Positions 154 through 62,078 of a DNA stretch of 64,000 nt are shown here, one piece after another. Source of the stretch: an uncultured Clostridia bacterium (lineage in GTDB: Bacteria; Bacillota; Clostridia; TANB77; CAG-465). The notes beneath the pieces are model-generated. The model saw only the letters and a program-made list of their open reading frames with translations, searched no databases and was not told where the DNA came from. Within the stretch, counting starts at the first letter, position 1; each line of letters begins with the position of its first letter. Both the position numbers and the translations under genes were made by a program. The DNA lies in assembly GCA_944387375.1 (NCBI GenBank), contig CALXEQ010000003.1, positions 69,942 through 133,941 of the forward strand, written 5' to 3'.

Positions 154-513
154 TTAAACATTTACTCCAAGTATTCCTCCAACTATTCCAGTAAGTGCAC
201 AAATTCCAATATATATTCCAAGTGTATTAGTAATACTAAACTGACCATTTAAAATACAAGATATTATAAATAATATTAAAATGCATAATATATTTACTAA
301 CACACCATGTACAATTCCTTGTTTTTTAATTTTTTTGCAAAGAAAAAAAGATGAAATAAAAGCAGATATAGCCATTGATAAAAAAATAGCAGAATCTATA
401 TACATATCATCTATATTAGTATAAGCAAAAACTAATGATACTATAATTAAAAATAAAATTATTGATATTGCAAAGCTTAAAATAGAAAATAAATAATTTT
501 TAATATATTCCAT
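154..513 (-). CDS. small polytopic membrane protein (119 aa)
   Basis: ORF from the six-frame track. The whole protein is hydrophobic helices. No recognisable motif. Confidence 0.45.
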   Translation of the reverse strand: MEYIKNYLFSILSFAISIILFLIIVSLVFAYTNIDDMYIDSAIFLSMAISAFISSFFLCKKIKKQGIVHGVLVNILCILILFIISCILNGQFSITNTLGIYIGICALTGIVGGILGVNV

Positions 514-608
514 ATAATCAACCTCAATTAATTATATGATTTTTTAGTACAAATATACTAAAAATAGGAAAAAATAAAACTGTTGATATTACATCAACAG
601 TTCATAGA

Positions 609-2097: not shown

Positions 2098-2121
2098 ATT
2101 AAGCCCTCCTTTTTATCTTTT

Positions 2122-3123
2122 TTATCTAGGAATAGAATCATAATTAGGTAAATCTTCTAATTTTAATGGTTTACTTAACATGTCCACATCATAAAGTAAT
2201 TGTGCTAAATCATTGTAACCCGTAACTTTATCTGTAGGTGGTTGATTTTTCATTAAGTCTATTACATCTTCTACATCACAATCATATTGTTTTGCTAAAA
2301 GTTGTGCATTTTTATCCATATCTTTTTCCCAATTTGCAATTACTTCATTTTGAACTTTTCTTACAGCCTCACATATATCTTGATTTTCATTATAAAAGTC
2401 TGTATTTGCAATTAATGCTGTTCCTATGCTATATTTTTCAATTACATCAGAAAAATCTCTTATCTTCTTTACACCTTTATCTGATAAAGCATCTGCTTTT
2501 AAATTAGCTGAGAAAGATAATATACTTCCTTTTATTTGATTTTTAGTTTCTAACATAGAAATTGCCTCTGTATTAGGAATTTTTACAAGCATTGTATTAT
2601 ATTCTTGAACATTAAGTCCCTCTTCCTTTAGTGCCGCTAAATATGCTGCTTGTGGATTTGATGCTAAACCACTAATACTTATTTGATCTCCTGCCTTAAA
2701 GTCTGCTAACGAATTTATATCATCTTGATTTGTATATGCCATAACTGTTGCATATCCATAAAAACTCATAAGTGTTAATGGCATTCCATTATCTATTGCC
2801 GTCATGTATGCCATTATACCTGGCGTACCAATATCTATTTCTCCTGAAACCATCGCATCTCTTATATCTGATGCAGAACTTAAAGTAGTCCATTCTACTT
2901 TTACTCCTTCAGGCATATATTTTTCCATAAGACCTTCCTCTTTAGCAATTTGAAAAACTGCTGAAGCGTAGTTGTCTGGATTGTAATTTATAACTACAGT
3001 CCTCTCTTGTGCCACTCCCTGGCTGTTCTCATCTCCTTTATTATTTTGTAAAACAACAGATGCAATAATAGCCACTATAATAACTGCCAAAATAACAATA
3101 ACTAAAATACTCTTTCTATTCAT
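2122..3123 (-). CDS. ABC transporter substrate-binding protein, NMT1/SsuA-like
   Basis: Signal-anchor N-terminus, periplasmic-binding-protein-like body, operon position. Preferred start is ATG at 3123 (MNRKSIL) with RBS GGAAAGGAG 7 nt upstream. The track's TTG start at 3165 is less likely. Confidence 0.75.
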   Translation of the reverse strand: MNRKSILVIVILAVIIVAIIASVVLQNNKGDENSQGVAQERTVVINYNPDNYASAVFQIAKEEGLMEKYMPEGVKVEWTTLSSASDIRDAMVSGEIDIGTPGIMAYMTAIDNGMPLTLMSFYGYATVMAYTNQDDINSLADFKAGDQISISGLASNPQAAYLAALKEEGLNVQEYNTMLVKIPNTEAISMLETKNQIKGSILSFSANLKADALSDKGVKKIRDFSDVIEKYSIGTALIANTDFYNENQDICEAVRKVQNEVIANWEKDMDKNAQLLAKQYDCDVEDVIDLMKNQPPTDKVTGYNDLAQLLYDVDMLSKPLKLEDLPNYDSIPR

Positions 3124-3260
3124 AGTTATTCTCCTTTCCAACAATTTTTTTACAAATAGTTTCAACTAATATAACCAATTCACCTCCTTACTAAAATTTT
3201 AGTAACAAAGTTACCCAATACTAAATTATTAGTTTTCTTCCCTATTCGTACTCTAGCGCA

Positions 3261-3289
3261 AGTATACCATAGTCTTTTTATTATGTCAA
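3261..3289 (-). promoter_or_regulatory. sigma-A type promoter (TTGACA-17-TATACT) for the ABC transporter operon
   Basis: Minus strand reads TTGACAtaataaaaagactatggTATACT, about 135 nt upstream of the substrate-binding-protein start. Confidence 0.5.
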
Positions 3290-3324
3290 GTATTTTTCAA
3301 ACGATTTGCATTTTTTTGTCGAAA

Positions 3325-3351
3325 AAAGGCACTACTACTAAAGTAATGCCT
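3325..3351 (-). terminator. intrinsic terminator of the DUF975-like gene
   Basis: Hairpin aaggcactac/gtaatgcctt with one mismatch, followed on the minus strand by TTTTTTCGACAAAAAAA. Confidence 0.45.
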
Positions 3352-3358
3352 TATTTTA

Positions 3359-4225
3359 TTATTTTATTGGATTATTATTTTCATTTACATCATTAATTGT
3401 CTGATTAGAAGTTACGTTATTTACAATTTGTTCTGGTTTTTGTATAATTTCAATCTTTCCAGATTCATTAGATATCGGATTTGATTTTACCTTTCCTGCT
3501 AAATTTTCATAGAAGAAAGCCATAGCAACACTCATATATGGGAATAAGAAAATAAATCCTATACCTAATGTAAGAATAGATAATATCATCCATCCTATAA
3601 ATGAAAGTGATAAGAAAATATATTTCAATCTATTTCCTTTCATTAACTTAACAGATAAATCAACTGTATCTTTTGCACTCATTTGTGGATTATCTATAGC
3701 TATATATGTAGAAAGTACACATAGTAATCCTCTTACAATTAACCATACATATCCAATAAATAATATAACTAATACTACTAAATATCCAAGCGATGAAGCA
3801 ACTAGTCCACCTTCATTTCCAGTGATTGCAGACATTGCTACAAACACTGCTAATATAACAATCGCAATTAAACTAATACCAACAATTATTAATGGAACTA
3901 TTAATTTTAATAATATTCTACCAGTAACACACCATGCTCTTGCAAAATCATTAAATGTATACTTAAAAAATTCAAAAGCATTATCTGTTTCTTTTCTTTT
4001 TAATCTTAATAAATTCTTCAAAAAGCCATATGCCAAAGGTATAGTTAATACCACTAAAGCTATATACCCTACAATAGGTATCAAAACATTAAGAAACGAT
4101 AAAACTGCTATTGATAGAACATACATTACATTTAATAATATAAATGTAGCCCAATTTCCAGATAAAGCCTCTCTTGCTTGTGCTCTTATCTCTTTTGCCT
4201 TCATAAAACATTTCCTCCTATACAA
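3359..4225 (-). CDS. polytopic membrane protein, DUF975-like
   Basis: The N-terminus MKAKEIRAQAREALSGNWATFILLNV resembles DUF975 membrane proteins. Multiple TM helices. Confidence 0.5.
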   Translation of the reverse strand: MYRRKCFMKAKEIRAQAREALSGNWATFILLNVMYVLSIAVLSFLNVLIPIVGYIALVVLTIPLAYGFLKNLLRLKRKETDNAFEFFKYTFNDFARAWCVTGRILLKLIVPLIIVGISLIAIVILAVFVAMSAITGNEGGLVASSLGYLVVLVILFIGYVWLIVRGLLCVLSTYIAIDNPQMSAKDTVDLSVKLMKGNRLKYIFLSLSFIGWMILSILTLGIGFIFLFPYMSVAMAFFYENLAGKVKSNPISNESGKIEIIQKPEQIVNNVTSNQTINDVNENNNPIK

Positions 4226-4243
4226 AAATATTAAATATAATTA

Positions 4244-4669
4244 TCATATTTTTTCTTCTACTTCTGCATCTGTTTTAATAGCATTATTTGAAACAACATT
4301 TTTCTTTAACTTATATTTTTTTCTTCTATCGTCAGCCTTTTGCATAAAATCCCTTCTTATAATAGAAAAATTATTTAATATTCTTCCTCCAAATACTATT
4401 ATTGCAGCAAGATATATTTCTACATTTAATATTTCTCCCAAATATACTAAAAACATAGAAAATAATGCATTAAAGAAAAATCCTGATAAAAATATTTTCA
4501 TTTTAAAATTCTTACCTGTACTTGCAGCAAGTGCACCAAAAATAGAATCTAAGCATGCTAAAATTGCAACTGCTACATATTGATAAGTAGAATATGGTAT
4601 GACTATAAATTGTCCTACTAATATCCCAACCACTATAAATAAAACTAATATTATTAATCCTAAAATCAT
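4244..4669 (-). CDS. sbp: small basic protein Sbp (DUF1290) of the division cluster
   Basis: Hydrophobic N-terminal half, basic C-terminal tail (RRKKYKLKK), conserved position after the DUF881 gene as in Bacillus divIB-ylxW-ylxX-sbp. Start ATG at 4669 with RBS AAGGAGAG. Confidence 0.6.
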   Translation of the reverse strand: MILGLIILVLFIVVGILVGQFIVIPYSTYQYVAVAILACLDSIFGALAASTGKNFKMKIFLSGFFFNALFSMFLVYLGEILNVEIYLAAIIVFGGRILNNFSIIRRDFMQKADDRRKKYKLKKNVVSNNAIKTDAEVEEKI

Positions 4670-4673
4670 TGTA

Positions 4674-5429
4674 CTACTCTCCTTGTTTTGCAAAGTTAAA
4701 TGATAAAGCTCCCTCATATTTTGGAATACTAATATTTGTTTCTCTTGTTAGAGTAACTTTTAACCCATATCCATTTAGTACGTCTACAACTCCATTTTTA
4801 ATAGTCATAGCACTTTCTAAATATTGCGAATTTCCAATAGCTTTAATTACAAATGGAGCTGCCACCTTTTGATAATTTACTTGTACTACAGAGCCAACAC
4901 ATCTTACTGCTGATGTATTTATTATTCTTTGCTCATTTACACTTATAGCTTCAGCTCCTGCTACTCTTAATTCATTTATTACAGTTATAATATCACTATC
5001 ATGAACTAATGAATCTGATGAATTTCCATCGTATAAAGTTATTATAATACCTTCACCTTGTACATCAGTAGTACCTGCAAGTAAGGATAACGTATTTATC
5101 TCATTTTTCATTGATGCAATTAAAGTATCATTTGTAGATGAATTTGTTTGATATTCTTCTACTATTTCTTGACTTTCTTCATAATCTTTCTTTAATTCAT
5201 CATATTCTGTTTGAAGTCTAACCAAAGAATCAGCAAGTTCACTTTCTCTTTTACCTTCTAAAATTGCTTCAGATTTACTAATAGTAGTAACTTGAGCTGT
5301 TATCATAATTGTTAATAAAAACAAAGCTATACCTATAGAAACATATGCAGCAATAGAATTTTTTTTCATATATTCTAAGATCTTATTTGTTTTTTTATCT
5401 TTAATACCCTTCTGAGCCAAAATAATCAC
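4674..5429 (-). CDS. DUF881 family division-associated protein (YlxW/YlxX-like)
   Basis: N-terminal TM, coiled coil, C-terminal DUF881-like region. Sits immediately downstream of divIB. Confidence 0.6.
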   Translation of the reverse strand: MIILAQKGIKDKKTNKILEYMKKNSIAAYVSIGIALFLLTIMITAQVTTISKSEAILEGKRESELADSLVRLQTEYDELKKDYEESQEIVEEYQTNSSTNDTLIASMKNEINTLSLLAGTTDVQGEGIIITLYDGNSSDSLVHDSDIITVINELRVAGAEAISVNEQRIINTSAVRCVGSVVQVNYQKVAAPFVIKAIGNSQYLESAMTIKNGVVDVLNGYGLKVTLTRETNISIPKYEGALSFNFAKQGE

Positions 5430-5432
5430 TCC

Positions 5433-6377
5433 TTAATTATATTCAGAATAGACAGGATCTTCTACACTCATGTCTATTGTTCCTTCCATATTATTTCCAT
5501 TTTTTTGCATAATTCCTTTTAAAAATGACACCTTATAATTTAAATTAGAATTATTAGCAAATACTATATTAAGTTTATCATCTAAGGTAACTATTGTCAA
5601 GGAATTAGAGAAATTAACCTTAGTTATACTTCCCTCTATTTGAATGTTTTCAAACTCATTTTTTATACTATTATATACTTCTAATTTTTCTATATAAATT
5701 TCATTAATTTTTTCTCCAAATTTTACATTTTCGCCAAAAGTAAACCCTTCTACTAAAAGTTCGTCTCCTTTAGAGGATAGTTCACACTCCTCAAGCAAAT
5801 ATCCCTCATTATCTATCTTATAATACTTTCCTGTACTACTATCTAAAGCTATATACATAGGATATCTTTCTTCTACATTAATTACTATAGTATCAGGTAT
5901 TAAATAATTAAGTTTAGTATTAGCTATGTAAGGTAAATTTACATTTTTGTTTTCAGAATTTAAAAGTTGCTTAAAAATGTTTTCTCCTAGTTTTAAATTT
6001 GAATTTTGCACTATTTGCTCATCTGAATATTTTGTATTTCCTTCAACTTGTATATTTTCTAAATTAAACGTTTCTAAATTAAACAACAAATATATAAAAG
6101 CAAAAATTATAGCCAAAAAAAATACAATTTTTAAAATAGTAGTAGCTTTTACCTTTTTAGTATTTACTCTATATTTTTCCTCTTTCTCATCTAATACATT
6201 TTGATTAACTCTATTTTTTATTGACTTATTTAATCTTATATCATTATTATTTCTATTAACTTTTTTCTTTTGATTAATATTTGAATTTTTCGGTAAAGGG
6301 CGCAAAGGACCAGTACTATTTTTTAATGCTTTTTTGTTATTTTTAGTACTTGTCCTACCTTTATTCAACCTCATCAC
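5433..6377 (-). CDS. divIB: cell division protein DivIB/FtsQ (POTRA domain)
   Basis: Basic N-terminal tail, single TM, POTRA-like region. Directly follows murG; the murG stop abuts the divIB start. Confidence 0.8.
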   Translation of the reverse strand: MMRLNKGRTSTKNNKKALKNSTGPLRPLPKNSNINQKKKVNRNNNDIRLNKSIKNRVNQNVLDEKEEKYRVNTKKVKATTILKIVFFLAIIFAFIYLLFNLETFNLENIQVEGNTKYSDEQIVQNSNLKLGENIFKQLLNSENKNVNLPYIANTKLNYLIPDTIVINVEERYPMYIALDSSTGKYYKIDNEGYLLEECELSSKGDELLVEGFTFGENVKFGEKINEIYIEKLEVYNSIKNEFENIQIEGSITKVNFSNSLTIVTLDDKLNIVFANNSNLNYKVSFLKGIMQKNGNNMEGTIDMSVEDPVYSEYN

Positions 6378-7496
6378 CTACTTTTGTTTTATACAATTAT
6401 AAATTTTATCCTCAACATCTTTAACAATTACTTTTGCTGCATTATCTCCCATTTTTATTAACTCATTATTATCTTTTATAATATTATCTACAGTACTATT
6501 TAATAATTCCTCTGTTAGATCTTTTTGTTCAATTATTTTTGCTGCTCCAACATTTTCTAATACTTTTGCATTAAAAAATTGATGATTTTCTGCAGCTGTA
6601 GGTAGTGGAATTAAAATAGATGGTTTATGTGCAAGAGCAAGTTCACTTATAGTCATTGCTCCTGCTCTTGTTATACAAAGATCAGATATTTTATACATTT
6701 CATCCATATTAAATATGAACTTTTCTATTTTTATATATTTATCTAGATTAATTTTCTGTTCTTCTTCTATTTTTTCTTTTATACTGCAAACTTCTTCATA
6801 ATTTTTATCTCCTGTAACTAATATATAATATACATCATCACCAGGATATTTTTTTATCATGTTAAGTACCACTTCATTTATTCTTTTTGCACCTTGACTT
6901 CCACATGTAACTAAAATTATTTTTCTATTTATATTTTCAAGTCCAACTTTTTTTAAGCATTCTTCTTTATTTAAATTTTCTATGTCTTCTTCATTAAATT
7001 TAGCGGGAGTTCCAGTATATACAGTGTTAGCCTTTGGAGTTAATCTTTTTTTAGCATCCTCAAATCCAAGCATTACACATCTTGCATCTTTTGCTAAAAG
7101 CTTTACTGAAACACCAGGAAATGCATTACTTTCATGTAAAATATATGGGATTTTTAAACTTTTTGCTGCTTTCATCACAGGACCACATATATATCCACCT
7201 GTACCAATAATTAAATCTGGTTTAAATTCTTTTAATATTTTCTTTGAGTCAAAAATTCCCATATATGCATTTATTAATGCTGTTATATTTTTTAAAGTAA
7301 TTTCTCTTAGAATTTTTCCAGTTCTAATATGTTTAATTTCATATCCAGCATTCTTAACCAATTTATTTTCAAGTCCATTTTCTGTTCCGATAAACAATAT
7401 ATTACTTTCTGGTTCATGCTTTAAAATAATGCCAGCCATTGCTATCGCTGGATTTATATGTCCTCCCGTACCTGCACATGCAAATATAACTTTCAT
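6378..7496 (-). CDS. murG: UDP-N-acetylglucosamine--N-acetylmuramyl-(pentapeptide) pyrophosphoryl-undecaprenol N-acetylglucosamine transferase MurG
   Basis: N-terminus MKVIFACAGTGGHINPAIA, glycosyltransferase family 28 architecture, dcw context. Confidence 0.9.
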   Translation of the reverse strand: MKVIFACAGTGGHINPAIAMAGIILKHEPESNILFIGTENGLENKLVKNAGYEIKHIRTGKILREITLKNITALINAYMGIFDSKKILKEFKPDLIIGTGGYICGPVMKAAKSLKIPYILHESNAFPGVSVKLLAKDARCVMLGFEDAKKRLTPKANTVYTGTPAKFNEEDIENLNKEECLKKVGLENINRKIILVTCGSQGAKRINEVVLNMIKKYPGDDVYYILVTGDKNYEEVCSIKEKIEEEQKINLDKYIKIEKFIFNMDEMYKISDLCITRAGAMTISELALAHKPSILIPLPTAAENHQFFNAKVLENVGAAKIIEQKDLTEELLNSTVDNIIKDNNELIKMGDNAAKVIVKDVEDKIYNCIKQK

Positions 7497-7510
7497 ATAC
7501 TACTTCCCTT

Positions 7511-8647
7511 CTATTGTTCCTTTGTTTTATTACAATTTTTAGATATATTTAAAATAATACCCATTGAACATAAATTAATAAATAATGATGTACCACCATA
7601 ACTAAAAAATGGTAATGTCATACCTGTAACAGGCATACTACATGTCACAACTGCTACATTTATTAATATTTGTATTGCAAATATACTTGTAATTCCTGCT
7701 GCAATTAGTGATCCATAAAAATCTTTACAAGTCATTGCGATCTTATATCCCTTATATATAAAAAATCCAAATAAACCTAATACAACTGTTGTACCAACAA
7801 AACCTAATTCTTCTCCTAAAATTGAAAAAATAAAGTCATTTTGTGCCTCAGGTAACCAAAGATATTTTTGTCTACTTTGACCAAGTCCTCTTCCAAATAA
7901 TCCTCCTGAACCTATAGCATATAAACTTTGCGCTGCTTGCCAGTTATCATCTTTTAAATTCTCTTCTGGATTCATAAAAGCAAGTATTCTTTGTAGTCTA
8001 AAATCTTCAGCCATTACAAATGCTACTCCTACCATTCCTATTACCAATACACCTGCAGCAATAGCCCTAAATTTAAGCTTTATTCCACTAGCAAATATTA
8101 CTGATACTGCAGCAACTATTAATACTAGCATACCACTCATATGCTTTTGCAGATACATTAGTAATACTACTATTAGTAACATAATTATTGGAACAATATA
8201 TCCCTTTATATTATTTAGTTTTTTTACATTTCTAGACAAATAAGTAGCTATTGCTAAAACTAATACAGGCTTCATTATCTCAGACGGCTGTATCTGAAAT
8301 GTTTCTCCTACTCCAAGCCATCTTTGTGCTCCATTTCTTGTAACACCAAGAGGTGTTATTACCAATAGTAATAATATAGCAGCTATAATAAAGGCTAAAT
8401 AGCTCCATTTTTTATATTTTTTATAATCTATTCTTGAAATAATAATCATAGCTATAACACCAAGTATTGCAAAAACTAACTGCTTATTAAATAGCTCATT
8501 ACTATTTCCATAATATATAAGCGAATGATATGAACTAGCAGACGCAACCATAACAAGACCTATGCAAAGTAATATTATAGTTATTACAAACATTCCAAAG
8601 TCCATATTTCCACTTATTTTTTTCATACTATCAACATCTTTTTTCAT
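7511..8647 (-). CDS. ftsW: SEDS family lipid II flippase/peptidoglycan polymerase FtsW/SpoVE
   Basis: 10-TM SEDS protein between mraY and murG. Confidence 0.85.
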   Translation of the reverse strand: MKKDVDSMKKISGNMDFGMFVITIILLCIGLVMVASASSYHSLIYYGNSNELFNKQLVFAILGVIAMIIISRIDYKKYKKWSYLAFIIAAILLLLVITPLGVTRNGAQRWLGVGETFQIQPSEIMKPVLVLAIATYLSRNVKKLNNIKGYIVPIIMLLIVVLLMYLQKHMSGMLVLIVAAVSVIFASGIKLKFRAIAAGVLVIGMVGVAFVMAEDFRLQRILAFMNPEENLKDDNWQAAQSLYAIGSGGLFGRGLGQSRQKYLWLPEAQNDFIFSILGEELGFVGTTVVLGLFGFFIYKGYKIAMTCKDFYGSLIAAGITSIFAIQILINVAVVTCSMPVTGMTLPFFSYGGTSLFINLCSMGIILNISKNCNKTKEQ

Positions 8648-8664
8648 TCAAAAACCCCTACTTT

Positions 8665-9618
8665 TTAAATGAAATATGCTATAACACAGCATATTACAGT
8701 TATAATCCAAAATATCATAACAACTGTTGTTTCTTTGTATCCACTAAGTTCCAAATGATGATGAAATGGTGCCATCTTAAATAATCTTTTTCCTTTTGTT
8801 GCTTTAAAATATAATACTTGCAATATTACAGATACTGTATCAATAATACAAACTAAAGCAACAATAGCTAAATATAATGGCATCTTTAATATTAAAGATA
8901 TGATTGCTACAGCTCCTCCAAGTGCAAGTGAACCAGTATCTCCCATAAATACTTTTGCAGGATGTATATTAAACAATAAAAATCCTATACAGCTTCCTAC
9001 CATACTTGACGCAAAAATCACCATTTCTGTATTTTGTTGTTTTAATGCAACCAGTGTAAAGAAAGTCATTATGATTGCTACAACACCTGTTGCAAGACCA
9101 TCAAGTCCATCTGTTAAATTAACTGCATTTGTTGTACCAAGTAATATAAATGCAGCAAAAATTATAAATAAAGGAATACCTAAAGATATAGGTTGATCTA
9201 CAAAAGGTATTATAATTGTTGTACCCAAGTCAAATACAAACAAATATAATCCTAATATTATTGCAGTAATTAATATTAATCCTAGCATTTTTATTTTAGG
9301 TGAAATTCCCTCTGGATCTTTTAATACTAATTTTTTAAAATCATCTATAAATCCTATAAACCCAAATCCTAAAATAGCCATCATAGGTAGTACTAAAACA
9401 GGATAATCTTTTAAATAAAAAGCTAATATACATGTTACCACTAATATCATGATTATCCCACCCATAATAGGTGTTCCACTTTTTTTAAGATGTGATTGTG
9501 GTCCATCTTTTCTAACATCAGACCCTAAATGTTTCTTTTTTAGTATCGGTACAACAATCATTCCAACTATTACTGTTGCAATAAAAGATACAAATAATAA
9601 AATCGTTTGTATATTCAT
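8665..9618 (-). CDS. mraY: phospho-N-acetylmuramoyl-pentapeptide transferase MraY
   Basis: Polytopic membrane protein with conserved MraY motifs (DDxxD-like FIDDF, NLTDGLDGLA). Confidence 0.9.
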   Translation of the reverse strand: MNIQTILLFVSFIATVIVGMIVVPILKKKHLGSDVRKDGPQSHLKKSGTPIMGGIIMILVVTCILAFYLKDYPVLVLPMMAILGFGFIGFIDDFKKLVLKDPEGISPKIKMLGLILITAIILGLYLFVFDLGTTIIIPFVDQPISLGIPLFIIFAAFILLGTTNAVNLTDGLDGLATGVVAIIMTFFTLVALKQQNTEMVIFASSMVGSCIGFLLFNIHPAKVFMGDTGSLALGGAVAIISLILKMPLYLAIVALVCIIDTVSVILQVLYFKATKGKRLFKMAPFHHHLELSGYKETTVVMIFWIITVICCVIAYFI

Positions 9619-19054: not shown

Positions 19055-19708
19055 TTACTCTATTACCTTAGATGTTCCATCCGACATAACAGCCACTGCA
19101 AGAATTGTTGCTCCTCCATTATTTCTAGTAAATGTAGCTTTTTGAAGTCTTACTACATCTTTTAAATTATCTATATTTCTTAATGTAAAATCTCTTTTTA
19201 TAATGTCATTTCCCTCTATATATCTTACTGTTCCATCTTCCATTAAAAATAATACCTTACATGCACTTCCATATCCAGATACTAAAACTTGCACTATCTC
19301 TTTATCTATTACATCTGATTCGTACGTAATAGGGTCTCCATTATAATAAAAATAAGTTTCAGCTTCATCTGTTGTAGAAATTGTAAATTTATTATCATTT
19401 ACAAAAACATCTATTCCAGATAATCTATCAAACATTAACGATGTTCTTCTAAACTCATCACTATTAAATGTCATATCGTCTTTATTCACTTTTGCAGGTA
19501 ATATTTTTTCTTCTTTATTTGCTTGTGCTTTAAAGTTATTATACTCTGTTTCTAAATTAGTATAATTTGCTTTTTCTTGTTCAAGCTGTGAAGTAACTTG
19601 TGTTATTGTATCATTTCTTTTTATTATAGTATTAATACAAAATCCACATGCAACTATTGCTACAATTAAAAGTAAAAATAATGTAAGTGTTGGTATATAT
19701 TTTCTCAT
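19055..19708 (-). CDS. membrane-anchored coiled-coil protein, paralog of the 52332-53021 protein
   Basis: N-terminal TM, coiled coil, C-terminal domain with DGTVRY...NLKDVVRLQ...GGAT...SDGT. Start ATG at 19708 with RBS AGAGGTGAA. Confidence 0.55.
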   Translation of the reverse strand: MRKYIPTLTLFLLLIVAIVACGFCINTIIKRNDTITQVTSQLEQEKANYTNLETEYNNFKAQANKEEKILPAKVNKDDMTFNSDEFRRTSLMFDRLSGIDVFVNDNKFTISTTDEAETYFYYNGDPITYESDVIDKEIVQVLVSGYGSACKVLFLMEDGTVRYIEGNDIIKRDFTLRNIDNLKDVVRLQKATFTRNNGGATILAVAVMSDGTSKVIE

Positions 19709-19900
19709 TATATTCACCTCTACTTTAAGAATAGCACATTACTATAAATTTCTCAATATAATAATATAATTTAATCTAAATCTAAAATAACTGATGTTCC
19801 ATCTAATTTAAGTCCAGCAATATCTACATAACCAGAATAAAAAACTATAGCAGGCACAGCAATAATTAAAGCATATTCTAAAAAAATGCTTTTTTGTAAA

Positions 19901-28399: not shown

Positions 28400-29380
28400 C
28401 TATATTAAAGATATACTATAATTTAGCTCTGAATAATTATTGCAATATAAAGATATACAATATGTATCAGTTTGATCATAGCAATCCAAAATCATAACTC
28501 CATCTTCATATCTTATTTCATATGTTGAAAATAACATAAAGTACATATTATTTTTATTAGAATCTATAAAACTCTTAAACTCATCAATTGTTTTAAATTC
28601 ATTGGATTTTGCTTGTTCATTAAGATATTCATAAGCTCTATCAATATCATAAAGTAATATTGTTTTTACATTATCAAATCTATACTCAGCAATATCTTCA
28701 ATAGTAGTCGAACTAGAACTAAATTTATTATAGTCTCTATTTTCTACAGACTGTGGTATATCAAAATTTATTTCTTCACCTTCTTTTAAACCATTAAAAT
28801 CAACATCAGCTAAATAATCTCCTAAATACACTTCAAAAGAGCTAGTTGTATTATCTAAAGTTAAAATCATATTAAAGTCTATACCATCATATGTCTCTGT
28901 ATTTCTTATAACACCTTTAACAAAATATGCAGTAACTAATCCAAAATCCTCAGGATTTTCTTCATACTTACTCAAAGAATATACTTCATATAATTCAATC
29001 TTGAAATTCTCTATATATTCTATATTAGAAGTAACATTTTCTTGAGTAATTCCAAGCTTATTAATATAATCAGGTGATAATAAATTATATGTGACATCTC
29101 TATAAAAACTGTCTGTACTATTAGGAGAAGATATTCCATTATAATACAAATAAAATTTTTGTACACAGTTTTTTACTAAATTTAAAGTAGCATATCCTTC
29201 TATTTTTTGTAATTTATTGTTTTCAGAATTTATTATCTCAACATCTGCCTCTCTTAATTCAGTATCACTATAACTGTTATCATTTTCATTAATATTACTT
29301 ACAACTTTAAATATAATTATAATAACAATTATAAAAAGCAACAATATTATTCCAAATATAATTTTTTTATTTTTATACAT
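28400..29380 (-). CDS. membrane-anchored protein, paralog B (T4SS block)
   Basis: See paralog A. Start probably ATG at 29380 (MYKNKKIIFG). Confidence 0.55.
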   Translation of the reverse strand: MYKNKKIIFGIILLLFIIVIIIIFKVVSNINENDNSYSDTELREADVEIINSENNKLQKIEGYATLNLVKNCVQKFYLYYNGISSPNSTDSFYRDVTYNLLSPDYINKLGITQENVTSNIEYIENFKIELYEVYSLSKYEENPEDFGLVTAYFVKGVIRNTETYDGIDFNMILTLDNTTSSFEVYLGDYLADVDFNGLKEGEEINFDIPQSVENRDYNKFSSSSTTIEDIAEYRFDNVKTILLYDIDRAYEYLNEQAKSNEFKTIDEFKSFIDSNKNNMYFMLFSTYEIRYEDGVMILDCYDQTDTYCISLYCNNYSELNYSISLI

Positions 29381-29396
29381 AATATTCACCAACTTT

Positions 29397-40384: not shown

Positions 40385-41059
40385 TTAAATAAATGTTTTA
40401 TTAATTGCTGTAGAAATAAATGACAACACATTAAGAGTTGTGAAAATTAAAATAATACCTATTATATACATAGCACTTTTTTCTTTCAGTTTTGCTTTTA
40501 CTTCGGGACCAGAAAAAATATACTTTACTCCCATATAAACTGTAACTATAACTGCAATAAATTTGGCAGCTAATACTATTATACTAAAAACGCTTGCAAA
40601 AGCACTTTCAAGACTAGAGCCATTAAAAATAAATAGTTGTGTATTTCCAGAAACTCCTGAAACAGCTATATTACCTGTGTTTTGATCATAACTAATATTC
40701 CTGATAAGTAAACCTCTTATATTGGACCATCCAAAGAAAAATATACATGCCACCAATAAAGTAACAAGATTTTCTTTAACAGAAACTTTATCAGATACAC
40801 TTCCTAAAACATATTTTATACCCAAAACAACCGTAGCTATAGCAATAGCTCCTGTTCCTATAGTTTCTACAATATTAGCTATTTGACTAATAACACTAGA
40901 ATCAAAATAAATATCAGTACTTCCCTGGGAATACCATTGAGACGCTTCACTCCAAAAGTCATACGTACTATTATTTTGACTATCGCTAGCATATAAATTA
41001 TTTAAAAATATTGTCATCATAAAAATCATTCCTAATAAAATAATATTTTTCTTTTTCAT
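40385..41059 (-). CDS. tandem-duplicated VirB2/TrbC-like pilin protein
   Basis: Signal peptide plus two copies of the pilin module: IAIATVVLGIKYVLGSVSDKVSVKENLVTLLVACIFFFG and IAVIVTVYMGVKYIFSGPEVKAKLKEKSAMYIIGIILIFTTL. Start uncertain: ATG at 41059 or TTG at 41071. Confidence 0.5.
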   Translation of the reverse strand: MKKKNIILLGMIFMMTIFLNNLYASDSQNNSTYDFWSEASQWYSQGSTDIYFDSSVISQIANIVETIGTGAIAIATVVLGIKYVLGSVSDKVSVKENLVTLLVACIFFFGWSNIRGLLIRNISYDQNTGNIAVSGVSGNTQLFIFNGSSLESAFASVFSIIVLAAKFIAVIVTVYMGVKYIFSGPEVKAKLKEKSAMYIIGIILIFTTLNVLSFISTAINKTFI

Positions 41060-41199
41060 ATTAAACCACAACCCTATTTTTTATAAATAGTTACTCCTTT
41101 CTAGTATAAAATCAAATATTAAATATAGTATAACATATATTAAAGCTATATTAGTAAATTATATATATTTTTTTTATTTTTGTAATAATAGTGAAATAT

Positions 41200-41565
41200 T
41201 TATATACTTGTCATAACATTATTTGATATGTTAGTAATAAATCCTATTATTGTTGGAGCCGCAAATACTAAAATAGTTCCTACTATAAGCCATATTAAAG
41301 TTTCTTTTATCTTCGCTTTATCATTTGAAGCAGCATACATATACTTTACTCCTGTAAAAACAACTCCACAAACTGCCGCAACTTGTAGTACTAAAAGAAT
41401 TGTAGAACCTACACGTGACATTACACCATCTAAAGCTGTATTTCCCTCATTAGCAACATTACCATATAAATCTTCATTAAACCCATTTCCTAAAACAGCA
41501 AAAATATAAGTATTACATATACTAAACAATACTAAAGTTATTAAAAGAATCTTTTTAAATTTCAT
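41200..41565 (-). CDS. VirB2/TrbC-like pilin (prepilin with signal peptide)
   Basis: Signal peptide MKFKKILLITLVLFSICNTYIFA, then two hydrophobic helices separated by KYMYAASNDKAKIKETL. RBS AAGAGGTAG. Confidence 0.55.
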   Translation of the reverse strand: MKFKKILLITLVLFSICNTYIFAVLGNGFNEDLYGNVANEGNTALDGVMSRVGSTILLVLQVAAVCGVVFTGVKYMYAASNDKAKIKETLIWLIVGTILVFAAPTIIGFITNISNNVMTSI

Positions 41566-41740
41566 TTTTCTACCTCTTTTCTATATTCTTATTTATATTA
41601 TACTATATATTATTTTTTTAATCAATTAAAATATTAGTAATATTATGAATTTATAAGCAAAAAATGAACCTCTGAAAAATATCAAAGGTTCATTTTTAAT
41701 TAAGTGCACTTAGTATTATTTAACATATTTATAATCTTAA

Positions 41741-42094
41741 TTATTGTATAACACTATTACCAGCATCAATAATAAATTGAACAACTGTACTTGCTGCGAA
41801 TACTAATATGGCACCTACAACAAGACCAATCATACCATTTTTAATTTCTGCTTTACCATCAGCACTAGCAAACATATACTTAACACCAGCAAATACTATA
41901 GCTGCAATTGCACATATTTGAAGAACTGTAAGAACTGTGCTCCATACGCTTGATACAGCAGTATTAACATTTCCAATTCCTTGACCACTACCCATATTTT
42001 GAATTTCCTCAGGAGTTCGTGCTAACACTGGACAAGTAACAATTACTAATGCTACAAGAACGATTGGCATAACTCTTAACATAAATTTTTTCAT
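41741..42094 (-). CDS. VirB2/TrbC-like pilin (prepilin with signal peptide)
   Basis: Paralog of the 41200 gene (VFAGVKYMFASADGKAEIKNGMIGLVVGAILVFAAS). Start ATG at 42094 with RBS AAAGGAGGGTG. Confidence 0.55.
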   Translation of the reverse strand: MKKFMLRVMPIVLVALVIVTCPVLARTPEEIQNMGSGQGIGNVNTAVSSVWSTVLTVLQICAIAAIVFAGVKYMFASADGKAEIKNGMIGLVVGAILVFAASTVVQFIIDAGNSVIQ

Positions 42095-42126: not shown

Positions 42127-42155
42127 ATTATACCAAATTTTGGATTAATAATCAA
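42127..42155 (-). promoter_or_regulatory. consensus-like sigma-A promoter TTGATT-17-TATAAT driving the T4SS-like operon
   Basis: Minus strand reads TTGATTattaatccaaaatttggTATAAT(TATAAT). The -10 element is duplicated. About 25 nt upstream of the first pilin gene. Confidence 0.5.
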
Positions 42156-42272
42156 TAGTTTTAATATTTTTTGCCTCTTTAAATGCGAATTTTTATAGAG
42201 TTTTGCTATATTTCTACCCAAATTTTTAGTATATTTTTCTTTACTTTTTTTAATTTACATATATACTATGTA

Positions 42273-42788
42273 ATGGTGATTCTTTTGAAAAAATTTTATT
42301 TTATTTATATTATTGTAATTATACTATATTTTTATTCATTTTCAAACAAAAATTCTGAAAAAAATTTACAAAATAATAATGTTTCTTTTATATATCCTAC
42401 CGAATATACTTCTCTTTCTTCTGAATATGGTAATAGATATTTATATGGATATCAAAACTTTCATGACGGAATAGATTTCTTAGCACCTCAAAATAGTTTA
42501 GTATATGCAAGCTGCGATGGATATGTAATATATTCTTCTTTTTTAGAAACCGGTTATGGAAATACTGTTATTATTTCTCATTCAAATAACTTAAGAACTT
42601 TATACTGTCATTTATCTGAAAATTTTATTGTTAAACCTGGTCAATATGTTAAGCAAGGGGAAATAATAGGATATGTTGGACCAAGATTTTTATCAAATGG
42701 AATACAAAATGGAAATACTACTGGTCCTCACCTTCATTTTTCTATATATAAGGATAATTTCAGCATAAATCCATTAAATTTATTATAA
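42273..42788 (+). CDS. M23 (LytM) family metallo-endopeptidase, membrane-anchored
   Basis: HxxxD motif (HDGIDF), GYGNTVIISH, HLHF motif. N-terminal hydrophobic anchor. Start ATG at 42273. Confidence 0.75.
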   Translation: MVILLKKFYFIYIIVIILYFYSFSNKNSEKNLQNNNVSFIYPTEYTSLSSEYGNRYLYGYQNFHDGIDFLAPQNSLVYASCDGYVIYSSFLETGYGNTVIISHSNNLRTLYCHLSENFIVKPGQYVKQGEIIGYVGPRFLSNGIQNGNTTGPHLHFSIYKDNFSINPLNLL

Positions 42789-42858: not shown

Positions 42859-43002
42859 CGTGTCAATTTTAGATTAAAAATTGACGTTATCATACATATC
42901 TTAATCATTTATAAATGATTAATTCTTTTTTACTCTGGGAATTTATTCCTGGAGTTTTTTATAAAATAAAAATATCAGGATATTTCTTCCTGATATTTTT
43001 AT
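42859..43002 (+). ncRNA. candidate small RNA (~145 nt) between the M23 peptidase and SSB genes
   Basis: Bounded by the consensus promoter upstream and a hairpin plus T-run terminator (42974-42994). Contains three further inverted repeats (42862-42885, ~42901-42922, ~42945-42960). No RBS-preceded ORF. Confidence 0.3.
42974..42994. terminator. bidirectional intrinsic terminator between the convergent M23/sRNA and SSB genes
   Basis: ATCAGGA-tatttct-TCCTGAT hairpin with T-runs on both strands. The ssb stop is at 42999-43001. Confidence 0.5.
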
Positions 43003-43622
43003 TTTTCTACTTTAGCAAATTTTGATACAGAAACTTCATATGCTACTTTCTTTTCAACTTCCCCATTTTCTAATTTTTTTTCATAAGCTCTTGATTGTAT
43101 TCTACCACTTAATTTTACCAAACTACCTACTTTTAAAGTATCACAAAATTTTGCATTTCTTCCCCATAATATACATGGTATATAATCTGATTTTTTATAC
43201 GTTCTATTAACTGCTATTAAAACATCTGCTATTTCTCTTCCTAAAGGAGTTTTTCTATATACAGGTTCTTTACAAATATATCCTATCAAATTTGCATTAT
43301 TTAATGTAACTATTGTATTGTCCTCTAAAAATTCTATTTCTTTTACAAAAACAGATAACACAAGTTTATTTTTCTTTTCTCCTTGCATATTGTATGATCT
43401 AAATTGACCATTAATCTTTACTATTTTATCTACCTGAATTTTATTTATATCAACTAATCTTTCTGATATTATAACAGGTAATATATCCTCATAATTACTT
43501 AGTCTTTTACTTTTTATTGAAAACTTATAAAATTTTTCTTCGAATATTTCATGACTAAATTCAGGTTCACTAATAATTACCCCACCTATAGCTACATTGT
43601 TATTTTCCATATAATTTTCCAC
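42999..43622 (-). CDS. single-stranded DNA-binding protein with two tandem OB folds and no acidic C-terminal tail
   Basis: Domain 2 matches SSB (LIAVNRTY, ILWGRNAKF, GSLVKLSGRIQSRAYE). Domain 1 is a degenerate copy. It ends ...KFAKVEK without the D-D-D-I-P-F type tail. Confidence 0.7.
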   Translation of the reverse strand: MENYMENNNVAIGGVIISEPEFSHEIFEEKFYKFSIKSKRLSNYEDILPVIISERLVDINKIQVDKIVKINGQFRSYNMQGEKKNKLVLSVFVKEIEFLEDNTIVTLNNANLIGYICKEPVYRKTPLGREIADVLIAVNRTYKKSDYIPCILWGRNAKFCDTLKVGSLVKLSGRIQSRAYEKKLENGEVEKKVAYEVSVSKFAKVEK

Positions 43623-43756: not shown

Positions 43757-44482
43757 TTAGATTTTATAGAACATAAAACCTATAATCATAAATAAAATAT
43801 ACTGTACAGGATAAAAATAATAAAATAACTTTTTATTTGAAAATCCTTTTTTACCATTATATAAATATATAGGTATAATTGCAAATAAACTATACTTCAT
43901 TATACTTTCTCCAAACAATATTAAAAATAATACACAACTACTAAATACCAATGCTTTCTTATATTTAATTTTATCATATAAAAACAAAATAGTTATAAAG
44001 AATGGAATTATAAATCCATATTCTATATCTAAAATTATATATAAAGAAAACAAAATTAAAATTAGCAATATATTTATAAATATCTTTTTCACATTATTAG
44101 TTTTTATTATATTATCTAATATAACTAAATAAAGTAAAGAAATTGAAAAAGAAAATAATATATTAGGCTCTCTATAAAAGTTTATACCATAGGTATTATC
44201 TATTAAATTAATTATTGTACCTACAATTATTACTAAAACTTGAGTGATAATTGCAAATTTTAATACTCTAATGATATATTGCTTTAAATCTTTTGTATGT
44301 TTATACCCCTGATAAATTAAAAATGCAAATAAAGGCATCGATATTCTTCCTATACTTCTTAATATATCATATTCATTATTTTCCAAAGCATAGTAGAAAA
44401 AATATCCAATATGATCAATTATCATAGTTATTATAGCTATTATTCTTATATCAAAGGACGAAAAAATTTTTAACGATTTCAT
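43757..44482 (-). CDS. TraX family polytopic membrane protein (putative acyl/acetyltransferase)
   Basis: N-terminal IIAIITMIIDHIGYFFY, the DHIG motif typical of TraX-family proteins. About 8 TM helices. Start codon lies 3 nt after the pgi stop. Confidence 0.6.
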   Translation of the reverse strand: MKSLKIFSSFDIRIIAIITMIIDHIGYFFYYALENNEYDILRSIGRISMPLFAFLIYQGYKHTKDLKQYIIRVLKFAIITQVLVIIVGTIINLIDNTYGINFYREPNILFSFSISLLYLVILDNIIKTNNVKKIFINILLILILFSLYIILDIEYGFIIPFFITILFLYDKIKYKKALVFSSCVLFLILFGESIMKYSLFAIIPIYLYNGKKGFSNKKLFYYFYPVQYILFMIIGFMFYKI

Positions 44483-59576: not shown

Positions 59577-62078
59577 TTGATAGAAAATCTTTTTAAAAAA
59601 TTACATATTTCGGTTAAACCAGAAAAGATTTTAACATATATACTTTATGCTATTAGTATAGTGGTAGCCTTTATATGTTTAGGTCAAATCTTAAGTTTGA
59701 TTGCTGGAAATATACATATGAGTGATAATATATCTATTGATTCTCCAATACCTTATATTATTTCTTTACTATTTATTATTCCAGCACTAGCATTTTCATA
59801 TTTTGTAAACTCAGGAATAGCAAAAAATGATGATGATAAAGTTAAAATGTTTATTGTTACATTCATTCTTTTAGCAATTCCAGTTTTATATGCTATCAGT
59901 GGAACAATAAATTGGATTTGTTGGAATGTATTAGAAGCACTTCCAAAATATGAGGAAGTATTATCTACATACCCACAATTTATTCCACCTGCTGTTAAAG
60001 CACTAACATTATTTATTCCATTCATATCTATAACATATATTTTAGACTATATCTTATCTATATATAATAGTGAAGATTTATTAAAATCTATTGCAGGATT
60101 TGTGGGACTTACTGTTAGTTCTGGTGGAAAGAAAAATGGAGCATTTGACTGTGATACTGTAATAGGTGCTGCAAAAGGTACTTCTGTTCCTATTGTTGTA
60201 CCTGAGAAGAAGCGTTATGAAGCAACTTTAGTTCAAGGTGCTACTGGTACTGGTAAAACAGCTACTGTTTTACTACCTATGAGTGCACTTGATCTTGAAA
60301 AGAAATTCTTCTTTAGAGAATATGCTAAAAAAATTGGATATTCTATGCTAAAAAAAGGTATTGCTTATATGAATGGACCATATGATAACAGATATATAAA
60401 CAGAAACTTTTCATTAAATATGTTAAAACCAAAGACAGGAATGGAAGAACAATTTGAAGATGAGGTAAGACCTTTAGTACAATATGTAGATAATGCAACT
60501 GGAAATATTACATATAGAAATTTAGGTATAACTATAGTAGAAAATGATGGAAACTTTATATCTCAGTTTATTGGTGTAGCCAAAAATTTTGATATAGATG
60601 TATTATCTATAGATCCTGCTAGCCCTGAAACAACTCTTAGTATTAATCCATTTGCTATTCCAGATCCTGCAAAAGCAGCTTCTATTGTAGCGGATGTTCT
60701 TATGGCGATGTATGATCAAAAAGGAAGCAGTGATCCATTCTTTACACAAGTAACTATAGATGCTTTCCAAAACTTATCTATATTACTTAAGGAAATGTAT
60801 CCTGTTCTTCATAATGGTGAAATGGCATCTTTAGAAGACATGCTTGAACTTTTATACAACTTCGATGCTGTTGAAGAAATGACTGAAGAAATGAAAAAAA
60901 TTCCTGAACTAGAACAAAAATATAAATTATTAATAAAATACTTTGAAAAGAATTTCTATAAACCAAGTTTAAATATAAATGGATATGAAATTCCAGGAAC
61001 TCGTGGTAGCGGTAGAAAAGATACTGAAAAATATCTATATGGTGCTATTACTCAACTTAACAATTTAATACGTAACCCTGGACTTAAAGCTGCTCTTTGT
61101 GGTAAAGAAAACGTAATTGACTTTGATAAAGCCTTAGCAAATGGTAGTGTAATAACAGCTTGTTCAAGAAAAGGTGATCTTGGTATTATACAAGCAAAAG
61201 CATTTGGTATGTTCTTTATATTACAATTCCAAGATGCAGTACTTAGAAGAAAAGGAAATGAAGAATCTAGAACACCTCATTTCTTATATATAGATGAATT
61301 TCCTGAATATATTACAAAAGACATGGAAGTTATGTTTACACTATTTAGAAAATATAGATGTGGTGTTACAGTTGCAATTCAAAACTTATCTCAACTTGAA
61401 AAATCTGGTCATTCTTATTACAGGCAAACTGTACTTGCAAATACTAAGACACAAATAGTATTTGGTGATACTGTAAAAGAAGACAGTGAATATTGGAGTG
61501 AAGCTTTTGGTATGGAGAAAAAAGTAGATTCTTCTACTTCATATAAAATTGATCCTACAGAAGGATTTAAAGCTGAGCCTACAAAAATAAATGTTAAAGA
61601 TAAAGAAAGAATTAAAAAGCATAAACTTGCAGAACTTGGATTTGGATCAATGTTTTACAAGACAAAAACTGCTAATGGAAAAACTGTATTTGGAGAAGGT
61701 AAAACATCATTCTTGGCAGATAAATACAAACAACATCAAAATACACTTATGTTTAATTTTGAAAAATATATGATGTCTAAACCTGATGCTCCAACTATAA
61801 CTATGAATGATAGTGACAATTCAACTAGTGATGATAACCTATTTGGAATAAACACTACTAATAGATTAAAAGAAGAAATTAAGAAAAATGTAACTGCTTC
61901 AAATGTTAATAACAATCCTGATTTTATTTCTACAGGTACAGATTATTCTCAAGATGATAGTACAAATGATATTGAAATCGTATTTGAAAATAATGATGTA
62001 ACACTAGATCAACAAGGAAATGGTGGAGCTATTACAGAAAACTATGAATCACCAATTATAAAAAGAAATAAAAATTAA
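59577..62078 (+). CDS. type IV coupling protein (VirD4/TraG/TraD-like T4CP), orphan
   Basis: N-terminal TM helices. Walker A LVQGATGTGKT, Walker B-like LYIDEFPEY, VAIQNLSQLE motif. Long Asn/Asp-rich C-terminal tail. TTG start at 59577, with an alternative ATG further downstream. Confidence 0.75.
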   Translation: MIENLFKKLHISVKPEKILTYILYAISIVVAFICLGQILSLIAGNIHMSDNISIDSPIPYIISLLFIIPALAFSYFVNSGIAKNDDDKVKMFIVTFILLAIPVLYAISGTINWICWNVLEALPKYEEVLSTYPQFIPPAVKALTLFIPFISITYILDYILSIYNSEDLLKSIAGFVGLTVSSGGKKNGAFDCDTVIGAAKGTSVPIVVPEKKRYEATLVQGATGTGKTATVLLPMSALDLEKKFFFREYAKKIGYSMLKKGIAYMNGPYDNRYINRNFSLNMLKPKTGMEEQFEDEVRPLVQYVDNATGNITYRNLGITIVENDGNFISQFIGVAKNFDIDVLSIDPASPETTLSINPFAIPDPAKAASIVADVLMAMYDQKGSSDPFFTQVTIDAFQNLSILLKEMYPVLHNGEMASLEDMLELLYNFDAVEEMTEEMKKIPELEQKYKLLIKYFEKNFYKPSLNINGYEIPGTRGSGRKDTEKYLYGAITQLNNLIRNPGLKAALCGKENVIDFDKALANGSVITACSRKGDLGIIQAKAFGMFFILQFQDAVLRRKGNEESRTPHFLYIDEFPEYITKDMEVMFTLFRKYRCGVTVAIQNLSQLEKSGHSYYRQTVLANTKTQIVFGDTVKEDSEYWSEAFGMEKKVDSSTSYKIDPTEGFKAEPTKINVKDKERIKKHKLAELGFGSMFYKTKTANGKTVFGEGKTSFLADKYKQHQNTLMFNFEKYMMSKPDAPTITMNDSDNSTSDDNLFGINTTNRLKEEIKKNVTASNVNNNPDFISTGTDYSQDDSTNDIEIVFENNDVTLDQQGNGGAITENYESPIIKRNKN

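Follow-up and report, generated by a model that had tools for sequence, protein, structure and literature searches.

VirB2, the T-pilin of Agrobacterium tumefaciens, and TrbC of RP4 (Pfam family PF04956) are small Sec-exported proteins with two hydrophobic helices and a short basic loop, and their gene lies directly upstream of virB3-virB4. From the type IV secretion systems (T4SSs) of Gram-positive bacteria such pilins have been reported missing. Guglielmini and others stated in 2014 that monoderms "lack homologs of VirB2" (PMC4027160), the paper on the pLS20 family likewise describes its plasmids as free of VirB2 homologues, and a December 2025 FEMS review lists VirB2 and VirB5 as not found in Gram-positive T4SSs except those of Patescibacteria; the absence of VirB2 from this class is stated in PMC4027160, PMC8557374 and PMC12857230. 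The subject of the present work is a group of three adjacent genes, pilA, pilB and a di-pilin gene, at positions 40385 to 42094 of a 64,000-nucleotide stretch (the window) from an uncultured Clostridia bacterium (assembly GCA_944387375.1, contig CALXEQ010000003.1, positions 69,942 to 133,941). Together they encode four VirB2-like modules, two of which are joined in a single protein.

In Patescibacteria, including Ca. Southlakia epibionticum, a monoderm-type T4SS with PrgI, VirB4 and a wall hydrolase is accompanied by tandem, diverged VirB2-like genes near virB4 (PF18895), and the system is chromosomal, with no adjacent relaxase and with a highly conserved VirB4, which suggests a core function (PMC12102498; PMC12857230). 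The arrays hold 2-11 VirB2 genes, mostly without a relaxase, and fused pilins were not mentioned (PMC12102498). The locus in the window is alike in all these traits, with its three genes and four modules. It differs in its host, a spore-former-type Clostridia metagenome-assembled genome (MAG) whose window encodes the sporulation protein Spore_YtfJ, all 42 genomes with the locus being Clostridia or Bacillota, and in an array that always ends in the fused di-pilin. Several diverged VirB2 genes in one T4SS are also seen in Bartonella Trw (tandem trwL) and in Anaplasma (virB2 paralogues), whereas those systems are diderm and host-cell-targeting, and their copies are separate genes and not fusions. 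Arrays of several VirB2 copies have precedents in Bartonella Trw, Anaplasma and Patescibacteria (PMC12102498). The original prediction, made by a model from the letters of the window, had called multi-copy and fused VirB2-like pilins unusual, and it has to be narrowed: multiplicity as such has been described before, and what stands out is that two modules are covalently fused and that the host belongs to Bacillota, the single pilins being already annotated as TrbC/VirB2. No description of fused pilins was found in the literature to 2025.

Compared with VirB2 and TrbC, the pilins described here occur in a Gram-positive-type Clostridia host without an outer-membrane core complex, their putative signal peptides are short (~24 residues), no cyclisation protease was seen, and one member is a covalent two-module tandem. 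In the cyclic pilins (the T-pilin, RP4 TrbC and TrhA of the H-pilus; PMC12037004), too, the C-terminus of a pilin is linked covalently to the N-terminus of a pilin, and both ends therefore lie close together on the outer face. Their bond is formed within a subunit and after translation, whereas here it runs between two modules and is genetically encoded. The TraB protein of pIP501 and PrgF-type proteins have, as is predicted for the present pilins, a signal peptide, two transmembrane helices and a tight cytoplasmic loop, and are likewise encoded in a Gram-positive T4SS operon (PMC9083827). TraB, however, is a single plasmid copy that its authors reported to be unrelated to VirB2, and it is set apart here by that published description, whereas the present pilins pass the VirB2 and T4SS_pilin thresholds. 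With the MPF-FATA systems of the pCF10/pIP501 type the locus has in common PrgI/VirB3 (PF12666), a CD1110-family VirB4 and a lysozyme+CHAP wall hydrolase. It differs in a coupling-protein-like gene that lies 17 kb off among ribosomal-protein genes, in the lack of any relaxase or integrase among the 48 scanned open reading frames (ORFs), and in the presence of VirB2-family genes, the class being described as without VirB2. Having an MPF-FATA core but neither that class's mobile element with a relaxase nor its lack of VirB2, and resembling Patescibacteria but residing in Clostridia, the locus therefore fits no described class fully.

Four pilin modules in three genes

The window has a GC content of ~26%, and nearly every gene lies on the minus strand. 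The three pilin ORFs were read on that strand exactly where they had been predicted, and all four quoted peptide strings were found verbatim.

41741..42094 (-): pilA, 117-residue VirB2/TrbC-type pilin precursor; signal-like residues 1-25, helical hairpin at ~42-116
41200..41565 (-): pilB, 121-residue pilin precursor, paralogue of pilA
40385..41059 (-): di-pilin gene, 224 residues plus stop; signal-like peptide, DFW..A..WY motif, module 1, linker, module 2
40694..40906 (-): di-pilin module 1, residues 52-122; divergent copy with an invariant LLxAC-FFFGW signature
40613..40693 (-): di-pilin linker, residues 123-149; predicted extracellular, low-confidence/disordered
40388..40612 (-): di-pilin module 2, residues 150-224; the copy nearer to the single pilins

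The local alignment score of every pair of modules exceeds those of 1000 composition-preserving shuffles. The strongest pair is pilA and pilB (z 28, 39/73 residues identical), followed by either single pilin against module 2 (z 16-17), either against module 1 (z 9-11), and module 1 against module 2 (z 6.4, 18/61 identical). For the last pair, profiles built from 31 homologues were compared with hhalign, which aligned 60 columns with a probability of 96.7% and an E value of 3.8e-10. The alignment of all four modules has 8 invariant columns, the loop residues K72, K81 and K85 are invariant, and the core motif reads G-x-K-Y-M-F-x5-K-A-x2-K. The predicted paralogy of pilA and pilB, the double occurrence of the module in the fused gene and an alignment beyond mere composition are all borne out by these comparisons. 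The proposed shared motif ending in K-x2-[IL]K holds in three modules and fails in copy 1 of the fused gene, where V takes the place of I or L (KVSVK). The internal duplication is real and conserved and is no assembly artefact, because 124 homologues of 200-240 residues and 42 genomes display the same architecture.

Family searches point in the same direction. The pilA product scores 34.0 bits against TrbC/VirB2 (PF04956, cut-off 27.9), and the pilB product 37.2 bits against T4SS_pilin (PF18895, cut-off 26.6), with 27.3 bits for PF04956, slightly under its cut-off. The di-pilin passes both thresholds, with 33.2 bits for PF18895 at residues 152-214 and 30.1 bits for PF04956, whose best stretch covers residues 55-114. 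Weak NCBIfam matches link the pilins to a 'pilin-like conjugal transfer protein' family of Mycoplasma integrative and conjugative elements (ICEs), and the NCBI and JGI pipelines label pilA homologues 'TrbC/VirB2 family protein [Clostridia bacterium]' and 'VirB2 component (pilin)'. When the pilA profile was compared with all PDB sequences, A. tumefaciens VirB2 was the only match, aligned over the full mature pilin at non-significant E values of 0.7 and 3. No holin, bacteriocin-immunity or other family scored higher. With all three proteins above a Pfam cut-off and with PrgI/VirB3 and VirB4 adjoining, the predicted family assignment stands, and all four modules very probably belong to the VirB2/TrbC-T4SS_pilin family.

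AlphaFold2 models made from homologue alignments place a signal-like helix and one hairpin in pilA (H42-76/H82-116; pLDDT 72) and two helical hairpins in the di-pilin (H54-85/H88-119 and H150-182/H185-222; pLDDT 69). Hydropathy segments agree, with one hairpin in pilA and two in the di-pilin, and each module is shown by the models as two predicted hydrophobic helices with a short Lys-rich loop. The linker is variable and gapped in the alignment of di-pilin homologues (A2), and its pLDDT falls below 50 at residues 130-147.

All three precursors are shown to start with putative Sec-type signal-like peptides, judged by eye to comprise a K-rich n-region, an h-region and VLA, IFA or LYA before the putative cleavage site; in alignment A2 the A at position -1 is ≥90% conserved. 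The ATG start of pilA at 42094 is backed by AGGAGG 8 nt upstream, and that of the di-pilin at 41059 by an MKK n-region conserved among homologues. An internal signal-peptidase cleavage of the di-pilin at A-F-A, where module 2 starts, was considered and rejected, because A-F-A is not conserved (homologues have FQS, LGN or ILN) and lies ~35 residues past the preceding helix. The signature LLxAC-FFFGW of module 1 (window 40739-40774, minus strand; di-pilin residues 96-107/111) is invariant and holds the only invariant Cys. Its LLVAC is lipobox-like, a reading that is not supported, as the motif is internal and charged residues stand ≤10 residues upstream. At residues 57-84 (window 40808-40891, minus strand) the di-pilin profile weakly matches the Pf3 phage major coat protein (PDB 1ifp, E 0.015) in a PDB search that otherwise gave noise, and the resemblance is probably compositional or convergent.

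Conservation in gut Clostridia and wider relatives

A total of 124 di-pilin homologues were collected (38-100% identity, nearly all 200-240 residues long). When each GTDB species was represented by a single genome, 42 loci were recovered. Their hosts are without exception uncultured gut MAGs, animal or human in origin, assigned to Clostridia or Bacillota, and include Clostridium sp. CAG:465, CAG:921 and CAG:1219. Related loci hold two to five pilin genes. Two singles plus one di-pilin occur in 27 loci, 3+1 in 8, 2+2 in 2 and 4+1 in 1, the remaining loci being truncated by contig ends; single pilins range from one to four per locus, and from two to four where the locus is untruncated. The di-pilin gene stands directly upstream of PrgI, mostly as one copy per locus, with two copies in L007 and L014.

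The wider gene order, PGI-(TraX)-SSB-M23-pilins-di-pilin-PrgI-478-residue protein-VirB4 and onwards, is kept across the 42 species-level MAGs, and the locus therefore passes down at a constant position of the chromosome and not on an obvious mobile element. Median identities of orthologues to the proteins of the window were 82% for VirB4 (across 37 loci), 72% for PGI, 68% for SSB and 53% for PrgI, followed by 50% for pilA, 39% for the di-pilin, 38% for pilB and ~30% for four downstream proteins. The VirB4 ATPase, to judge from these values, is under unusually strong constraint. Across loci L005-L046, VirB4 outranks even the glycolytic enzyme PGI in identity, and the presumed surface components downstream reach only ~30%.

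In a neighbour-joining tree of 179 modules, first modules (from 45 proteins), second modules and single pilins form three pure clades. As the tree shows, the fusion arose once, as an ancient event before the divergence of these species. Module 2 is nearer to the singles than module 1 is, with mean distances of 0.71 and 0.82, respectively.

Beyond this clade, a HMMER search of 1.84 billion cluster representatives retrieved 4602 proteins at E≤1e-3, 397 at ≤1e-10 and 66 at ≤1e-30. The best 150 of the 4602 included 148 new proteins, in which modules were counted: 129 carry two, nine carry three, two carry four and one carries five. Among the two-module relatives of this set, 48/129 have N-terminal extensions of 100-450 residues behind the signal peptide, in which no Pfam domain was found. 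Metagenomic polypilins, with three to five tandem VirB2 modules in one ORF, are exemplified by protein P0176 (L049 801-2153, plus strand) and by P0202 and P0211. The five-module protein is encoded in a locus that reads pilin, polypilin, pilin, PrgI-sized gene, TraC-like gene and VirB4. Multi-module relatives thus occupy an analogous locus, and in this type of T4SS the concatenation of VirB2 modules is recurrent.

No relatives of the di-pilin or of pilA were found by tblastn against 72,556 plasmids, Enterococcus plasmids included, nor in IMG/VR by a pattern scan. The nearest plasmid VirB4s, from C. beijerinckii and C. botulinum, are 40-42% identical. Upstream of a PrgI-sized gene, C. botulinum p12/29 (L048 9247-9630, plus strand) and C. 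beijerinckii p1 (L047 10152-10562, plus strand) each specify an unannotated protein that has two helices besides a signal peptide, and the two share the loop A-[LV]-K-F-x-N-V-G-D-N-S-S-x-K. These proteins may be very divergent pilins. They are not claimed as members of the family, the C. botulinum protein reaching a sub-threshold 18 bits for PF18895, the C. beijerinckii protein having no Pfam match, and both being missed by the hidden Markov models of the modules.

Gene neighbourhood and expression signals

Further genes of the window are listed here from the di-pilin downstream and then from pilA upstream.

39978..40367 (-): PrgI/VirB3-like protein; PF12666, 34.1 bits (cut-off 27)
38541..39977 (-): 478-residue membrane/coiled-coil protein; weak PF11130 match, position conserved in all loci
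36516..38510 (-): VirB4-type ATPase; PF19044, DUF87, AAA_10; NCBIfam CD1110-family VirB4 at E 2.6e-64, below the equivalog cut-off
28400..36529 (-): further conserved T4SS genes of 501, 352, 187, 278, 1031 and 342 residues; order kept in related loci
29397-32492 (-): lysozyme+CHAP cell-wall hydrolase of 1031 residues; CHAP and Phage_lysozyme matches
42183..42788 (+): M23 (LytM-type) peptidase, divergently oriented from pilA; PF01551, 98.9 bits
42999..43622 (-): SSB-family protein; PF00436, 73.6 bits; position upstream of the pilin array conserved
43757..44482 (-): TraX-family acyltransferase; PF05857, 87.5 bits; flanked by PGI and SSB, also in ≥15 related loci
59577..62078 (+): type IV coupling-protein-like ATPase, VirD4/TraG-type, 833 residues; TraG-D_C 43.7 bits and T4SS-DNA_transf 39.4 bits, both above cut-offs

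The PrgI start lies 17 nt past the di-pilin stop and is preceded by AGGAGGGAG, the gap holding a ribosome-binding site. VirB4 appears to be split (window 36516-39977, minus strand): the 664-residue ATPase matches the CD1110 VirB4 profile only from profile position 164, and the 478-residue protein is probably the detached, TraC-like N-terminal part. The counterpart of the 478-residue gene in locus L049 carries the TraC-like family PF26593. Four proteins between VirB4 and the 1031-residue hydrolase are conserved and have no Pfam family, and within the gene set at 28400..36529 a weak match to the Mycoplasma ICE family MMCAP2_0566 was seen. The M23 peptidase adjoins the pilins in most related loci and is recognisable in 31 at ≥50% coverage. 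In pCF10, three hydrolase domains are combined in one protein, PrgK; here the M23 peptidase and the 1031-residue lysozyme+CHAP protein jointly hold these three domains.

The SSB-family protein (42999-43622, minus strand) has 207 residues and two matched SSB stretches, with an extra N-terminal OB-like part, and is kept in most loci. TraX of the F plasmid N-acetylates pilin, and by analogy the TraX-family acyltransferase may be a candidate modifier of the pilins described here. The coupling-protein-like gene lies 17 kb off the T4SS cluster among Pth, L21, L27, Obg and other housekeeping genes; the T4SS parts are dispersed over the chromosome, like those of Rickettsiales or Patescibacteria. The rest of the window encodes IleRS, PGI, the dcw cluster, a class-I (Trp/Tyr-type) aminoacyl-tRNA synthetase and the sporulation protein Spore_YtfJ. 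The scan for relaxases and integrases, negative in 48 ORFs, left eleven ORFs at 154-9618 outside, and no outer-membrane core-complex homologue was detected at this locus. Two paralogous ORFs of 220 and 232 residues without a Pfam family (19055-19717 and 52332-53030, both minus strand), 33 kb apart, flank the T4SS region.

Signals that may govern expression were located around the single pilin genes:

42127..42155 (-): promoter-like site upstream of pilA; TTGATT-17-TATAAT plus TG extension, 10/12 consensus matches
41597..41625 (-): promoter-like site upstream of pilB; TTGATT-17-TATAAT, 10/12 consensus matches, weak evidence
41655..41696 (-): intrinsic-terminator-like element after pilA; 15-bp hairpin plus U6, fold z -4.63

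The pilA hairpin was matched by 0/200 shuffles. Promoter-like consensus sites numbered 36 against 26.7 expected, which is weak evidence in AT-rich DNA. No terminator-like structure was present between pilB and the di-pilin. In related loci, terminator-like elements, counted with no shuffled control, follow 48/89 single-pilin genes and never the di-pilin preceding PrgI. Because of these terminators and promoter-like sites at the singles and the 17-nt coupling of the di-pilin to PrgI, the arrangement suggests that the single pilins would be made in bulk from their own units and the di-pilin at the stoichiometry of the machine.

A possible role for the di-pilin

The function of the pilin set is a matter of inference only. 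The reading considered probable, with some reserve, is that pilA, pilB and the di-pilin gene form the pilin complement of a T4SS fixed in the chromosome of an uncultured low-GC lineage of gut Clostridia, pilA and pilB supplying the bulk and the di-pilin a low-copy subunit. In VirB2 and TraA, the termini of the hairpin lie outside the membrane and the basic loop is cytoplasmic, becoming the lumen of the pilus, and VirB4 extracts pilins from the membrane. By the same arrangement, after export and cleavage of the signal peptide each hairpin would sit in the membrane with both ends outside and its basic loop inside. As both ends of a hairpin would be on one side, an external linker of ~30 residues could join two hairpins with the topology unchanged. 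VirB4, together with PrgI/VirB3, would then extract the pilins and polymerise a pilus-like filament or conduit, which would pass the cell wall through a breach cut by the M23 and lysozyme+CHAP hydrolases. In this filament pilA, with its own promoter-like site and terminator, and pilB, a separate unit, would be the abundant shaft subunits. The di-pilin, presumably co-transcribed with PrgI and VirB4, would be a low-copy covalent pseudo-dimer, starting assembly and finally residing at the tip or base, functionally replacing the missing VirB5 and, in relatives, displaying an extracellular N-terminal domain. Whether an extracellular filament is actually built is judged an even question, and it is a tentative and somewhat doubtful assignment that the di-pilin is no bulk subunit but a minor one that acts as primer, tip or base. 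A specialised role is favoured by the mostly single di-pilin per locus, beside singles that vary in number, and by the N-terminal extension of 48 of the 129 two-module relatives among the best 150. As to cargo, the adjacent SSB and the unlinked coupling protein suggest single-stranded DNA.

Several points weigh against this proposal. Filaments have never been observed on these bacteria, which are uncultured, and no pilus is made by the Gram-positive T4SSs examined to date (PMC4027160; PMC12857230). The invariable presence of the di-pilin could equally mean that it is an essential shaft subunit. The better conservation of pilA (median 50%, against 39% for the di-pilin) neither supports nor refutes the model. 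The PDB match of pilA to VirB2 (E 0.7) is not significant alone, the AlphaFold models are moderate only (pLDDT 69-72, pTM 0.40-0.44), and fold searches were uninformative and non-specific, thousands of chains being matched by a helical hairpin. Promoters and terminators were predicted from consensus or energy, in DNA that is very rich in AT, and the cross-locus terminator count has no shuffled control.

Three other explanations were weighed against these data. One is that the pilin-like proteins stay in the membrane as translocon or stalk parts of a pilus-less T4SS, the fused form being a four-helix membrane subunit. That the studied Gram-positive T4SSs are without a pilus, that TraB of pIP501, a protein of the same topology, is indispensable for transfer (PMC9083827), that no outer-membrane core-complex homologues were detected at the locus, and that one similar small protein is encoded by each of the nearest plasmid T4SSs (C. 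botulinum, C. beijerinckii) all speak for such a part. Yet the pilins pass the Pfam VirB2 and T4SS_pilin thresholds, with TraB judged unrelated to VirB2 by its authors, and the diverged paralogue arrays, the separate units of high-expression type and the big N-terminal extensions fit a surface polymer better; this explanation is regarded as unlikely, if worth serious attention. The view that all these proteins are unrelated small membrane proteins (holins, bacteriocin-immunity or phage coat-like proteins) whose resemblance is one of hydrophobic composition draws on their short, hydrophobic, low-complexity-like character and on the weak match of the di-pilin profile to the Pf3 coat (E 0.015). 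It is effectively refuted: the similarity outlasts composition-preserving shuffles (z 6-28) and profile-profile comparison, Pfam thresholds are passed, synteny with VirB3/VirB4 is strict in 42 genomes, and there were no viral or plasmid matches.

The remaining alternative accepts a pilus and reverses the roles, with the di-pilin as the obligatory main shaft subunit, a covalent dimer repeat, and the singles as accessory or antigenic-variation subunits. It would explain why the di-pilin is the one invariant member of arrays in which singles vary in number; relatives with 3-5 fused modules show that concatenation is tolerated, and such accessory or antigenic-variation roles have been suggested for VirB2 arrays in Bartonella, Anaplasma and Patescibacteria. 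The di-pilin is, however, encoded in a low-stoichiometry machine operon without its own terminator, whereas pilA has a promoter-like site and a terminator; the bulky N-terminal domains of many di-pilins would be difficult to accommodate if each subunit of the shaft bore one, and pilA is the better-conserved pilin. Such a reversal is considered improbable.

A wider hypothesis, offered as speculation and thought rather unlikely, is that in this lineage a T4SS of the conjugation type was domesticated and became a pilus organelle that is inherited vertically, strongly constrained and possibly essential, with di- to penta-pilins as a tip or adaptor that replaces VirB5. Among monoderms, only Patescibacteria had been credited with such a solution. 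If true, this would imply a contact-dependent lifestyle, for example the uptake of DNA or nutrients from neighbouring cells, and it might identify the kind of Firmicutes system from which Patescibacteria obtained their T4SS and pilin arrays. In reviews to December 2025, Patescibacteria are the only monoderms potentially able to build conjugative-type pili, and the window and the 42 genomes show VirB2-family arrays in Bacillota. A second, independent lineage is thereby available for asking if a VirB2 pilus gets across a thick cell wall and by what means, and the same lineage of Clostridia bears on the cargo of domesticated T4SSs and on the origin of the patescibacterial system. The di-pilin and the polypilins of 3-5 modules are natural covalent oligomers of a pilus subunit, handy for structural work, and could reveal which subunits of the pilus lattice are neighbours and what primes assembly when VirB5 is missing.

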